From: Octopus sinensis
Lineage: Eukaryota
DNA length: 17,496 bases
Assembly: GCF_006345805.1 (NCBI RefSeq)
Contig: NW_021824899.1
Coordinates: 1 to 17,496 of the forward strand
Direction of reading: 5' to 3'
The translations under genes were made by a program, and so were the position numbers. Of the stretch, positions 388-16,627 are shown piece after piece; within the stretch, counting starts at the first letter, position 1, and every line of letters starts with the position of its first letter. The notes under the pieces are model-generated. The model was not told the DNA's origin. It was given only the letters and a program-made list of their open reading frames with translations, and ran no database searches.

Positions 388-600
388 GATTTCAAATTTT
401 GGCACAAGACCAGCAATTGCGGGGGAAGGAATGAGTCAATTATATCGACTCCAGGACTCAACTGATACCCATTTTATCAATTCCGAAAGGACGGAAGGCA
501 AAGTCGACTTTGGCGGCATTTGAACGCAGAACAAAAGTCAGACGAAATGCTGCTAAGCATTTTACCCAACGTGCTAACGATTCTGCCAGCTTGCCGCCTT
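388..600 (-). mobile_element. SINE family A, full length, diverged, tail type 2
   Basis: Reverse complement of family A from tail (GATTTCAAATTTTGGCACAAGACCAGCAATT) to head (TCTGCCAGCTTGCCGCCTT). Degenerate TSD: AAGGCTTCAAATGTTG (373-388) vs AAGGCTTCT+GATATTG (602-610 joined to 851-857), 13/16. Confidence 0.88.
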
Positions 601-610
601 TAAGGCTTCT

Positions 611-832
611 TATTTCTTTATTGCCCATAAGGGGCTAAACAGAGAGGGGACAAACAAGGACAGACAAACGGATTAACTCGATTACATCGACCCCAGTGCG
701 TAACAGGTACTTAATTTATCGACGAAATGTAAAGTCGACCTCGGCGGAATTTGAACTTAGAACGCAGCGGCGGACGAAATACCACAAAGCATTTCGCCTG
801 GCGTGCTAACGTTTCTGCCAGCTCGCCGCCTT
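611..832 (-). mobile_element. SINE family A, tail type 3, with 18-20 bp TSD
   Basis: Runs from tail TATTTCTTTATTGCCCATAAGGGGCTAAAC to head GCTCGCCGCCTT, with a small internal deletion near 722. Flanked by TTGCCGCCTTTAAGGCTTCT (591-610) and TTGCCGCCTTTAAGGTTTCT (831-850), 19/20. Confidence 0.92.
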
Positions 833-857
833 GCCGCCTTTAAGGTTTCTGATATTG

Positions 858-1040
858 CAAAAAGGGGCTAAACACAGAGAGGACAAACAAGGACAGACAA
901 ACGGATTAAGTCGATTATATCGACCCCAGTGCGTAACTGGTACTTATTTAATCGACCCCGAAAGGATGAAAGGCAAAGTCGACCTCGGCGGAATTTGAAC
1001 TCAGAACGTAGCGGCAGACGAAATACCTATTTCTTTATTG
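858..1040 (-). mobile_element. SINE family A, tail type 3, head-less circularly permuted unit
   Basis: On + it begins inside the tail (AAGGGGCTAAACAC), runs to GACGAAATACC (1027), then restarts with the tail end TATTTCTTTATTG (1028-1040). Bounded by TATTG at 853-857 and 1036-1040. Confidence 0.9.
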
Positions 1041-4083: not shown

Positions 4084-4195
4084 AATAACACACTTTAACT
4101 GAGTAATCTGAATGCAAAAGTGTTAATTATAGAGAAATAACAATTTTTGTTTATTTTGATACAAAGATCTGATATTCAACTGGAAATGAAACTGG

Positions 4196-4610
4196 ACTCT
4201 TTACTCTCTCTTTTACTCTTTTACTTGTTTCAGTCATGTGACTGTGGCCATGCTGGAGCACCGCCTTTAGTCGAGCAAATCGACCCCAGGACTTATTCAT
4301 TGTAAGCCTAGTACTTATTCTATCGGGCTCCTTTTAGCGAACCGCTAAGTTACGGGGACGTAAACACATCAGCATCGGTTGTCAAGCGATGTTGGGGGGA
4401 CAAACACAGACACACAAAATTATACACACACATATATATATATGTACGACGGGCTTCTTTCAGTTTCCGTCTACCAAATCCACTCGCAAGGCTTTGATCG
4501 GCCCGAGGCTCTAGTAGAAGGCACTTGCCCAAGGTGCCACGCAGTGGGACTGAACCCGGAACCATGTGGATCGTAAGCAAGCAACTTACCACACAGCCAC
4601 TCCTACGCCT
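4196..4610 (-). mobile_element. tRNA-derived CORE-like SINE family B, full length
   Basis: Minus strand: head AGGCGTAGGAGTGGCTGTGTGGTAAG, B-box GGTTCAGTCCC, then GTGGCACCTTGGGCAAGTG (resembles MIR CORE TGTGACCTTGGGCAAGT), internal TA/TG microsatellite and (GTAAAAGA)n tail. Near-identical to 10929-11334 and 15633-16039. Possibly one of the published octopus OR-type SINEs (not verified). Confidence 0.93.
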
Positions 4611-6201: not shown

Positions 6202-6645
6202 TACTCTTTTATTCGTTTCAACCATGTGGCTGAAGTCATGCTACAGCACCACTATGGTTTTTCAGACTTCCTCAGTCTGGGGTGTATCACATCACCACTC
6301 TTGTATGTGCCTTTGTCCCAGCTATTGGCCCATCTGGTTTATAAGGGAGTTTGATTCCTCAGCCCTCGTCTGCACTTCATGTCGGGCTATTGGTTCATCC
6401 GGTTTCGTGGAAAGGAGGATGTTTAGTTCCTTTTTACTTCAACCTCATGCAGATTTCTTAATTTTTAAAAAGCTTTTTGTGGCAGGGCATTGAAGAGCTG
6501 TGGGCCTTTGAACCCTAGGCTATTGCAGTACCTGGTCCTGAATTTAAATGGGGTGGATGGTACATTTGGTACAATATAATGTCAGCCAGTTCTAGCATAT
6601 GCCGAAGTTAGGTATTAGCCCTTCTAGGATTTTCCATATGTATAT
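6202..6645 (-). mobile_element. 3' relic of a CR1/L2-group LINE (ORF2 C-terminus, 3' UTR and tail)
   Basis: Minus-strand translation with frameshifts: IYIWKILEGLIPNFGI / ARTG*HYIVPNVPSTPFKFRTRYCNSLGFKGPQLFNALP / LRNLHEVEV / KELNILLSTKPDEPIARHEVQTRAEESNSLINQMGQ* (stop at 6322-6324). This is a typical post-RT C-terminal segment of CR1/L2-group ORF2. Ends in GAAACGAATAAAAGAGTAA. Confidence 0.85.
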
Positions 6646-7095: not shown

Positions 7096-7101
7096 ACAGT
7101 T

Positions 7102-7456
7102 GATTCTAATTTTGGCAAGCAATTTTGAGAGGAGGGAATAAGTTGATTACATCGACCTTAGTGCTCAGCTTGTACTTATTCTATCGACCCCGAAATGATG
7201 AAAGGTAAAGTCCACCTTGGCAGAATGTGAATTCTAAATCTAAGGCTGGGATAAATACCTATTTCTTTACTACCCACAAGGGGCTAAACACAGAGGGGAC
7301 AAACAAGGACAGACAAACAGATTAAGTCGATTATATCGACCCCAGTGCGTAACTGGTACTTATTTAATCGACCCCGAAAGGAGGAAAGGCAAAATCGACC
7401 TCGGCAGAATGTGAATTCTAAATCTAAAGCCGGGATAAATACCATTAAGTATTTTG
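7102..7456 (-). mobile_element. Old family A copy (tail 2) interrupted by a young family A insert
   Basis: Old segment 7102-7259 resumes at 7403-7456; 41 bp of diverged sequence is duplicated (7219-7259 / 7403-7443, 39/41). Confidence 0.85.
7260..7402 (-). mobile_element. Young family A insert (tail type 3), 5'-truncated, in register with host
   Basis: TATTTCTTTACTACCCACAAGGGGCTAAACAC...TCGACCTC, near-identical to the corresponding part of the 858-1040 copy. Confidence 0.9.
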
Positions 7457-7907
7457 TGAGAGGTTCCACAGGACATATCTGAAATGGAAGCGAAGTATCA
7501 AGGCCGGTTCAATCCAGACATGTTGGGTAACTACTACTGGTTCCCTCAACGGGTGACCAACACGAGGCATAAACACAAGTGTCTCAAACATTTCTGAGCT
7601 GAGCATATCAAAAACAAAGTGAGTATTCCCTTATCATAAATATACTAAGTACCATTATTTTATTATACTATTTGCCTTGAACATAAATATACTATATACA
7701 GTACTAATATACTATTATAATAATTATTTACCTTGAATTTAACTATTTCTGATACTAATATATTTAAATATATAATTATGCACATAACTCAAAAATCTTT
7801 ACGTGCTACAGTAATTCTGAGTTCAGATACAGAATCAACGTACTCGATTTAGCTTAGTACAGCAGTATCTGTCTGGGTGGTAGACAATTTTTTGCTATTG
7901 CCTAGTG
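7456..7907 (+). mobile_element. Right end of a Chapaev3-like (CMC) DNA transposon with transposase C-terminal relic
   Basis: 7458-7597 translates (one frameshift) ERFH/DISEMEAKYQGRFNPDMLGNYYWFPQRVTNTRHKHKCLKHF*, matching the GERFHQDI..ME.RYQG.W...ML.DYCW motif I associate with Chapaev3 transposases. The subterminal TAACTCAAAAATC..ACGTG...CTGAGTTCAGAT and terminus TTGCCTAGTG followed by TTA fit CAC..GTG ends and a TWA TSD. Superfamily assignment is from memory; no left end seen. Confidence 0.75.
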
Positions 7908-10100: not shown

Positions 10101-10149
10101 TCTCTCTCTTGTCCAGGCTATTTCTGTTCGCCTGTTATTGCTTTTGTTT

Positions 10150-10533
10150 GTGGAGGCGCAATGGCCCAGTGGTTACGGCAGCGGACTCGCGGTCATAGTA
10201 TCGCGGTTTCGATTCCCAGACCGGGCGTTGTGTGTGTTTATTGAGCGAAAACACCTAAAAGCTCCACGAGGCTCCGGCAGGGGATGGTGGTGATCCCTGC
10301 TGTACTCTTTCACCACAACTTTCTCTCACTCTTTCTTCCTGTTTCTGTTGTACCTGTATTTCAAAGGGCCGGCCTTGTCACTCTCTGTCTCACGCTGAAT
10401 ATCCCCGAGAACTACGTTAAGGGTACACGTCTCTGTGGAGTGCTCAGCCACTTACACGTTAATTTCACGAGCAGGCTGTTCCGTTGATCGGATCATGCGG
10501 AACCCTCGTCGTCGTAACCGACGGAGTGCTTCC
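10150..10533 (+). mobile_element. tRNA-derived SINE family C, full length, 13-bp TSD
   Basis: Head GTGGAGGCGCAATGGCCCAGTGGTTA (A box), GGTTTCGATTCCC (B box); perfect TSD ATTGCTTTTGTTT at 10137-10149 and 10534-10546; homologous to 12545-12912. Confidence 0.94.
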
Positions 10534-10795: not shown

Positions 10796-11137
10796 TGTTT
10801 GGCCCCTGGTCAGCCTTGATCGAACTAACCTATGATCAAAGCCGTTCCAGCTGTGACCATTGCATTTTTTTCTTATACGGGGCAAATATTGAACCATACT
10901 GTCCAATGTGTCCTTTTTTAACACTGTACTCTTTTACTCTTTTACTTGTTTCAGTCATGTGACTGTGGCCATGCTGGAGCACCGCCTTTAGTCGAGCAAA
11001 TCGACCCCAGGACTTATTCTTTGCAAACCCAGTACTTATTCTATTGGTCTCTTTTACCGAACCGCCAAGTTGCGGGGACGTGAACACACCAGCATCGGTT
11101 GTCAAGCGATGTTGGGGGAACAAACACAGACACACAA

Positions 11138-11168
<31 letters not shown>

Positions 11169-11407
11169 CATATATACGACGGGCTTCTTTCAGTTTCCGT
11201 CTCCCAAATCCACTCACAAGGCTTTGGTCGGTCCAAGGCCATAGTAGAAGACACTTGCCCAAGGTGCCACGCAGTGGGACTGAACCCAGAACCATGTGGT
11301 TGGTAAGCAAGCTACCTACCACACAGCCACTCCTACTGTAGGATATGAAATAAAGGGCAGTTGGTTGCTGCTTTTAGCAGGTCTGGTGAACACACAGAGG
11401 CTTCCTC
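10796..11407. mobile_element. Repeat family D, copy 3, split by SINE B
   Basis: Left part 10796-10928 (GGTCAGCCTTGATCGAACTAACCTATGATCAAAGCCGTTCC...TCCAATGTGTCCTT) and right part 11341-11407 (GGATATGAAATAAAGGGCAGTTGGTTGCTGCTTTTAGC) join colinearly with copies 1 and 2. Confidence 0.65.
10929..11334 (-). mobile_element. SINE family B, near full length, 6-bp TSD
   Basis: Near-identical to 4196-4610; lacks the first few 5' nt; flanked by ACTGTA at 10923-10928 and 11335-11340. Confidence 0.93.
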
Positions 11408-12544: not shown

Positions 12545-12912
12545 GGCACTCCGTCGGTTACGACGACGAGGGTTCCAGTTGATCCGATCAACGGAACAGC
12601 TTGCTCGTGAAATTAACGTGCAAGTGGCTGAGAATTCTACAGACACGTGTAGCCTTAACGTAGTTCTCAGGGAGATTCAGCGTGATAAGGCTGGCCCTTT
12701 GAAATACAGGTACGACGGAAACAAGAAGAAAGAGTGAGAGAAAGTTGTGGGGAAAGTGTACAGCAGGGATCACCACCATCCCCTGCTGGAGCCTTGTGGA
12801 GCTTTAGGTGTTTTCGTTCGATAAACACTCACATCATCCGATCTGGTAATCGAAACTGCGATCCTACGTCCACCAGTCCGCTGCCCTAACCACTGGGCCA
12901 TTGCGCCTCCAC
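12545..12912 (-). mobile_element. SINE family C, full length
   Basis: Reverse complement of 10150-10533, from GCACTCCGTCGGTTACGACGACGAGGG to CCATTGCGCCTCCAC, with a short internal deletion near 12685. Confidence 0.93.
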
Positions 12913-12950
12913 ATACATACATACATACATATATACATACATACATACAT

Positions 12951-15503: not shown

Positions 15504-15632
15504 ATTTACTTCTGCGTAACATTATTGTCATTTAGTATTGTTATATCGATAGTTTTCCCATATCAGACTTATTACGTATTATCTCATTATCGGTCTTGGA
15601 ACCTGTAATCCTGCTGCTTTAGTATTTAGTTA

Positions 15633-16039
15633 TACTCTTTTTACTCTTTTACTCTCTTACATGTTTCAGTCATTTGACTGCGGCCATGCTGGAGCACCGC
15701 CTTTAGTCGAGCAAATCGACCCCGGGACTTATTCTTTGTAAGCCCAGTACTTATTCTATCGGTCTCTTTTGCCGAACCGCTAAGTTACGGGGACGTAAAC
15801 ACACCAGCATCGGTTGTCAAGCAATGCTAGGGGGACAAACACAGACACACAAACACATACACATACATATACATATATATGCATATATACGACGGGCTTC
15901 TTTCAGTTTCCGTCTACCAAATCCACTCACAAATCTGCTATAGCAGAAGACACTTGCCCAAGATGCCACGCAGTGGGACTGAACCCGGAACCATGTGGTT
16001 GGTAAGCAAGCTACTTACCACACAGCCACTCCTGCGCCT
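15633..16039 (-). mobile_element. SINE family B, full length with small internal deletion
   Basis: Near-identical to the other B copies; GGCTTTGGTCGGCCCGAGG is replaced by a shorter segment near 15933. Confidence 0.93.
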
Positions 16040-16627
16040 ATGTTTGAAATACTATTCGAGTGCATCTTTATGACATTCCTTACTAATAGTTTCTTTATTT
16101 TGTATGTTTCATCTTGCCTAGTGTATTGATTGTTTAATTTTTGCCAATCTGTGTTTGGCGTATTCCACTTATTTCTTTATCTTCATATAGCATGATATTA
16201 CTGTTCTTAACTTCCCTCTCTTCTAGTTTGCTTTGGCGTACTTTGCCATTCTGAATCTCATATCAGTTACTTTAGTAAATCTATGTACTCCTTGCGGACT
16301 GCCCCGCTGCTGGGGATTCTATCTATTTATTTATTATTTATTTCTCTACTTTCTATGATATATCTTCTGTTATATCCTTTAATGTGGTAATATCTCCCCT
16401 TGACTGATGTTGACGCCACATGTTTTTGTGGCTTTTGGAATTTTTTGTTGTTGCTATAACTTGTTCTTCGATATTGTCCTCCATGGGCCCGTGTTTACAA
16501 CACAAATTCGCAAAAATTTTCTGAAAATTCGTAAAACTAAAAATAATTACGAGGGGTTATAATGGGGGTACTGAACCCAGAATCCGCCTATTTTGGCGCA
16601 CGGTGTATATAGAACTGTATTAGCCAA

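Follow-up and report, generated by a model that had tools for sequence, protein, structure and literature searches.

Our analysis revealed that a short SINE of Octopus sinensis inserts preferentially at one position within its own relatives. This site is frequently occupied, and where the target is non-homologous the same SINE end carries TSDs. A LINE was also found to end at this base, and the inserts are joined to their hosts in register, with host alleles replaced by those of the donor. We consider it probable that insertion is primed by a LINE at a preferred site, that targeting is led by protein and helped by RNA read-through, and that the 5' end is completed by pairing of the cDNA with the host.

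Results

A young insert within an old host SINE

The window (the whole stretch of 17,496 nt that was analyzed) contains the 3' part, about positions 91–233, of a young tRNA-type SINE with the tail termed "tail 3" (7260..7402, minus strand). This 143-bp insert ends in AAAGAAATA at 7260, is 95% identical to 862–1002 and aligns to our young-copy yardstick. It lies inside an old host SINE, of which the part from the target word GGTATTT (SINE position 50) onward occupies 7219..7259 (minus strand). The remainder of the host, its central body and a tail judged by eye to be of the oldest type, occupies 7099..7218 (minus strand; 78–85% identity to young copies). On the 5' side of the insert, 38–46 bp of host sequence are duplicated at 7403..7443 (minus strand), and upstream of the duplicate the decayed head of the old host continues in register at 7444..7475 (minus strand; 56% identity to the head yardstick, with the alignment reaching position 39). 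The priming end at this locus would be the host AAATACC at 7253–7259, where the host adjoining the nick is only about 70% identical.

The preliminary description had reported an insert in an old relative together with a duplicate bearing the private mutations of the old copy, and both observations were borne out. Self-comparison of the window showed that 7219–7259 and 7403–7443, which flank the 143 bp, are equal at 39 of 41 bases, and 12 of the 14 host-private changes in +1..+40 are present in both copies. Since the next host-only changes occur at +41 and +46, the duplicate measures 38–46 bp, and 41 is one value in this range. The sum of insert and duplicate (143 + 41 = 184) is expected under any in-register 5' joining and is therefore no separate evidence. 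Public contigs from four runs covered the left flank, and none of them bridged the array; thus, these data provide no confirmation of the assembled sequence through the insert and reveal no empty allele. A search for the empty allele in two other organisms recovered 0.84 of the sampled words against a baseline of 0.68, which is too weak to use.

A second event had been placed at 1021–1036. The same 16-nt junction does recur there, as part of a young unit (862..1040, minus strand) with a junction like that at 7260; however, the upstream side is reduced there to a 13-nt tail remnant, the copy that follows downstream is itself young (97%), and neither a host head nor a duplicate or TSD was found. 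The junction is therefore the same, and the kind of event is not. The claim that two events indicate a systematic mechanism holds for self-targeting as such, through the genome-wide junctions described below, and fails for 1021–1036 as the second example.

Other repeats were noted in the window. A full-length tail 3 copy (611–830) read from the sequence has an ordinary 20-bp TSD starting with AGAA (591–610 and 831–850, 19/20; whole feature 591..850, minus strand) and sits just 5' of an older SINE head; comparable head-to-tail stacking of SINEs near position 1 was seen at several loci. A second SINE-like family has three copies that are 88–94% alike (4190–4610, 10925–11336 and 15625–16040), with an internal CA/TA microsatellite and an end of the (AAAGAGT)n type. 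A third repeat of approximately 380 bp is present as inverted copies at 10145–10529 and 12546–12917 (86–91% complementary), and 6240–6620 (minus strand) resembles, by eye only, a decayed LINE 3' fragment. An Rfam match to MIR7533 at 238–455 was rejected, as it is far under the cut-off and is produced by two inverted old tails.

Identity of the SINE and its ordinary insertions

The SINE is 233 nt long, of which position 50 to the end accounts for 184 nt. It has several features of a tRNA-derived SINE, being short and interspersed, with at least 93,741 exact tail ends and variable TSDs of 8–23 bp. Words resembling the A and B boxes, TGGCAGAA and GTTCAAATTCC, were recognized by eye in the head, and ARAGORN and Rfam gave no tRNA hit. 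The unit lacks a T4 terminator. From the style of its sequence, it may be kin to the octopus tRNA-derived SINEs OK, OR1 and OR2, reportedly described by Ohshima and Okada in 1994.

Roughly 93 tails without a downstream sense SINE were screened for TSDs. A TSD was detected for 58 of them, and 52 were kept after six low-complexity cases had been dropped; these measure 8–23 bp, and 2 or 3 of the 52 are spurious SINE-internal matches. At these other sites, the TSDs begin at, or a few bases from, the tail end. Because most start right after the tail, the tail end is fixed and the junction bears the signature of target-primed insertion. The target of ordinary insertions reads R(C/T)^(G/T/A)(G/A)TA.

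Genome-wide use of the target site

Position 50 of the same SINE, GGTATTT (AAATACC on the other strand), directly follows the tail 3 end at a large number of junctions. An exact-pattern search of the genome placed SINE-internal GGTATTT after 32,995 of 93,741 exact tail ends (35.2%), as against about 1e-4 expected from base composition, and reversed-pattern controls gave 0. The enrichment proposed earlier as a check on priming at the host AAATACC-3' was thus observed. Under the Kojima measure of target specificity (over 20% of flanks in one target), the SINE has 35% of its tail ends at the target, and 25 of 88 tails when inner junctions are dropped. Among the first 100 tail ends of the listing, fetched without the junction as a selection criterion, there were 25 first junctions at position 50, 12 inner array junctions, 3 joins to position 17 and 60 ends elsewhere. 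The loci lie mostly within the first 16 Mb of contig C1.

Occupancy was estimated in the older sister family F2, from the first 49 of 816 matches, chosen only by an intact GGTATTT and an F2 word. Position 50 was occupied in 27 of these 49 copies and position 17 in 5 more. This 55% is inflated, since CpG decay removes unhit copies from the pattern, and a rough correction gives 40–45% by our own estimate. In contrast, none of the first 30 control sites RC^GGTATTTA (RCGGTATTTA), 28 of them outside SINEs, was occupied (0/30; Fisher p = 6e-8 against F2), and occupancy of such sites genome-wide is at most 3.7% (107 hits, capture 30/61, 5,852 sites). Sites of the form GGTATTTATYY, often in antisense SINEs, were occupied in 289 of 29,933 cases; among 29 of these insertions inspected, 18 had a normal TSD of 9–24 bp and about 20, by eye, lay in antisense SINE copies. 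The RCGGTATTTA and antisense controls rule out the short motif as the sole cause.

Position 17 (AGAAACG) is a second self-insertion site, with a period of 217, which is also joined in register and is used mainly by the older C221 subfamily. Examples are L079:4024-4241 (plus strand), L197, L218, L367, L373 and L375.

Register and alleles at the 5' joint

Among 125 first junctions, 103 had one head in register and 18 had no head, at a threshold that we set ourselves. The other 4 had a second head upstream, and in 2 of them the order of host head, TSD of about 13 bp and whole young SINE is clear. The period was 183–185 in 89 of the 103 in-register junctions, so that the constant spacing of about 184 and the homology-guided resolution of the other end, both suggested from the window, were found again genome-wide. 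Each such in-register event likely adds a 184-bp tandem unit.

A long host duplicate as the rule was not upheld. The left copies in 42 other old hosts carried none of the 40 changes confined to the host at +0..+14, perhaps half of which postdate insertion, and no long common run like that of the window was seen. In 18 F2 hosts that keep the TT alleles on the right, the left copy at +13/+15 was of donor type in 14, TT in 2 and mixed in 2. Even the head can be altered, with a young-only allele in 5 of 26 hit F2 heads and in 0 of 22 unhit F2 copies. Usually, then, donor sequence takes the place of the 5' part of the host, which is what pairing of the cDNA with the host would predict; the long host duplicate in the window is a rare case and an outlier.

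The hosts are older than their inserts. F2 remainders were more diverged than the inserts (0.070 versus 0.038; 15 of 21 higher and 5 lower, p = 0.004), and the two divergences were uncorrelated (rho -0.02). No pair among 42 old remainders had three rare changes in common, and the remainders fall into three old tail types. About 9 of 61 young–young junctions, by eye, have variants in common from end to end of the unit and resemble products of a later tandem duplication. One of 11 headless arrays, L041, is a headless 5'-truncated dimer inside a single 15-bp TSD, indicating that multimers can be copied whole. The 8–10-unit array at L096:3100-5000 has common variants and a higher-order pattern, which suggests DNA-level amplification after seeding.

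A candidate partner LINE

At L357/L011, a SINE head is followed by a 16-bp TSD (14/16), a 5.3-kb LINE of the L1/Tx1 type and then SINE position 50. A second copy of this LINE (L361; 87%) ends at the same base. Both copies end at position 50 and neither elsewhere, although two of two is too few for the target-specific criterion; these are the only two copies in our loci, both came from loci fetched for SINE arrays, both look decayed, and no 5' end was seen for L361. The tail of the candidate (L011 and L361 ends) matches SINE positions 199–232 at 82% over 34 nt, so that SINE and LINE have a 3' end in common. The intact relative L345 encodes an APE endonuclease, an RT and zf-RVT, with L1 ORF2p as its best solved match (E = 3e-51), and the endonuclease frame of L357 is 46% identical to that of L345. 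The LINE sought as sharer of tail 3 thus has a candidate with an APE endonuclease in its group. These matches make it likely that an L357-type LINE with a matching 3' end nicks the SINE site and mobilizes the SINE.

The L357 LINE struck a CGTATTT site. CGT occurs in only 2 of the first 100 SINE junctions (GGT in 87), as opposed to 30 of the first 100 head-context sites (GGT in 33), by listing count; the site preferences of SINE and LINE are therefore not identical.

Other LINEs were considered as partners. CR1 and RTE partners were rejected, since none of 27 RT-bearing loci inspected had tail 3 as its own 3' end; two tail matches in these loci were SINEs lying downstream. The best RT matches lack the tail and presumably belong to CR1-like, RTE-like and other families. 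When the tail search was relaxed, it recovered LINE ends that have AATAAA and a hairpin resembling that of the tail. Among LINEs with a similar tail, the most abundant (1,511 exact ends) runs into ATT repeats instead of the SINE site and is a relative rather than the partner.

Several further elements were observed. At L086:3776-3806 (plus strand), a LINE 3' UTR shares 29 of 30 nt with SINE positions 175–204; given this match, tail 3 may have been pieced together from the ends of two related LINEs. L341, L343 and L347 carry L1/Tx1-type LINEs followed by (ATT)n, in tandem at a spacing of 5.3–5.9 kb, and in a sister family of these LINEs the repeat that follows is (TATC)n. Small unplaced contigs of G000 (L261–L290) hold the top RT matches, whose families are unlike the chromosomal ones; these contigs may come from another organism in the assembly.

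Discussion

In the mechanism that we favor, the endonuclease of an L1/Tx1-type LINE would nick the old SINE at position 50, at RC^GGTATTT or GC^GGTATTTCG in SINE context, and the LINE would reverse-transcribe SINE RNA from the nicked end. The endonuclease would set most of the site choice, with assistance from RNA read-through (GGUAUUU...) from dimer sources. The cDNA would then pair with the homologous host, the heteroduplex would prime the second strand, and in-register completion would add 184 bp. In the window, the joint probably formed at the first good homology, 38–46 bp downstream, because pairing beside the nick was poor (about 70%). Either a template jump or a second nick placed farther away would have led to it, and this would explain the rare long duplicate. 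The two routes of priming offered in the preliminary description fare differently: nicking is favored by the tail-sharing LINE at the same base, whereas priming at an RNA junction is weaker, with one of 11 headless arrays as its sign, and no need for a circular RNA was found. A DNA hairpin at the target was unsupported, as there is a local 12-bp stem on the top strand but 101-nt windows fold like shuffles (z -0.7 to +1.0).

The division of labor between protein and RNA in site choice can be weighed in some detail. The RC preference upstream of the site and the LINE at a CGTA site argue for a role of protein. In contrast, the target word is not the same (p = 0.0009) in SINE subfamilies that are alike in tail and close in age, so that one endonuclease alone is insufficient as an explanation, and the tie between subfamily and target word points to read-through or to several partners. 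We regard it as rather unlikely that read-through is the main targeting device. Under that explanation, dimer or array transcripts with GGUAUUUCGUC... past the tail anneal to nicked hosts, each source biases its progeny toward sites that resemble the flank of that source, and feedback favors self-insertion; it needs transcripts that run past the tail rather than ending at AAAGAAAUA, with which the missing T4 terminator agrees. The target word indeed tracks the subfamily (T221 in 30 of 30 non-SINE GG sites, C221 in 16 of 19 AG/AA sites), and within T221 the copies at TA and at GG targets are close in age yet have different internal alleles. The L041 dimer, the TSDs of L091 and L125, whose right copy differs by 2–4 bases toward GGTA, and the closer match of hit than unhit hosts at +7..+19 (0.146 versus 0.243, families not matched) are also in its favor. 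However, the RC preference 5' of the site cannot arise by pairing with an RNA ending in AAAUA, the LINE itself struck a CGTA site, and C221 is older (0.058 versus 0.038), so that a change of partner also explains the association of subfamily and target.

Origins at the DNA level alone, whether tandem duplication with gene conversion, unequal crossover or crossover with an excised 184-bp circle, appear highly improbable. Crossover with a circle, already held inadequate in the preliminary description, predicts a young right and an old left copy, and the data show the reverse. Duplication with conversion, named there as the alternative, is disfavored in turn, as the window host has a different tail and its duplication cannot make tail 3. 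Moreover, ordinary TSDs accompany this tail end at unique sites, at antisense sites and twice at the sense site. The about 9 of 61 young–young junctions with variants common across the unit, the one 8–10-unit array of the same kind and the published SINE satellites ascribed to unequal recombination in the portions of PMC10702118 used here do speak for such events, which remain only as a way of extending arrays and are disfavored as the origin. It is equally hard to credit that a few composite masters, each a young SINE with an old remainder, were copied whole and that the number of junctions thereby exaggerates targeting. Of 21 F2 composites, about half do have a clean 9–16 bp TSD around the whole, and dimers such as L041 can be copied whole; however, the right halves are older than the left with uncorrelated divergences, and the remainders lack shared rare changes and have three old tail types. 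As general origins, circle crossover, plain duplication with conversion and composite masters were rejected on allele polarity and divergences.

LINE-primed insertion with pairing at the 5' end has partial counterparts in known systems, as described in the sections of the cited papers drawn on here. In crocodilians, 313 of 347 SINEU-3 copies flank Mariner-N4, and tandem copies arise by sequential insertion (Kojima 2015, PMC4494074). SINEU-3 and Tx1-Mar, a SINE and a Tx1 LINE, prefer another repeat, as the SINE and its candidate partner would here, with tandem copies coming from sequential insertion. In contrast, their target is a DNA transposon with a TSD between tandem copies, whereas here it is the SINE's own family, joined in register with loss of the second head. 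PMC4494074 also summarizes insertion of Tx1 into Tx1D, Keno into U2, and Kibi and Koshi into microsatellites. Tx1-clade LINEs and the group of our candidate share an ORF2 with APE, RT and zinc knuckle, a short TSD and a fixed 3' junction in a multicopy target; unlike those targets, the present one lies in a SINE head, between its putative A and B boxes, and the preference is partial, with 60 of the first 100 SINE tails elsewhere.

R2 and R1 form precise 5' junctions through a cDNA–target heteroduplex (PMC3774820, PMC2718515, in the parts used here). As in those elements, upstream homology in the RNA would give precise joints, with a minority of direct duplications on failed pairing; there, however, the homology is co-transcribed 28S rRNA, while here it is the SINE's own head, yielding a tandem unit per event. 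In R1Bm and SART1, the RNA anneals to the target, and priming can be made more accurate by a short stretch resembling the target beyond the 3' end (PMC7265360, in part); in the present case, the signs of such annealing are indirect. SINE-derived satellites and tandem SINEs of squamates (PMC10702118) and bivalves (PMC11481361) are attributed, in the passages used, mainly to unequal recombination, and tandem SINEs make up about 2–3% of SINEs in the clam and potato cases. Short arrays from part of a SINE are shared with these satellites; here, a third of the tails join a SINE and the first step is insertion. L1-Tx1 and many unclassified SINEs appear in an octopus repeat annotation of 2026, and "nested" does not occur in the portion of its main text used (PMC13282606). 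In the literature searched, whose coverage excluded subscription journals and Repbase reports, we found no SINE or LINE that targets a SINE head in register. By analogy, the combination would work like Tx1-type targeting with R2-type precise joining, of which self-insertion of a SINE in register is a variation.

Second-strand priming in non-LTR retrotransposition is still poorly understood, and the tens of thousands of natural events with known donor and target alleles make it mappable by crossover position and host divergence. The junctions show how tandem repeats could arise from SINEs by a means distinct from unequal crossover, and they point to a safe-haven strategy in which about one insertion in three is directed into the SINE's own kin. 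Head replacement and nested units also bias estimates of SINE number, age and subfamily in this genome. It is possible, and we propose it only tentatively, that this is a self-targeting SINE whose 3' end derives from a LINE targeting its own head, whose in-register 184-bp units rewrite the host head and whose read-through passes on the preference. With about half of the intact sites of a sister family hit, this would then be a retrotransposition-driven path by which a SINE turns into a minisatellite, and the target preference would be heritable and encoded in RNA.
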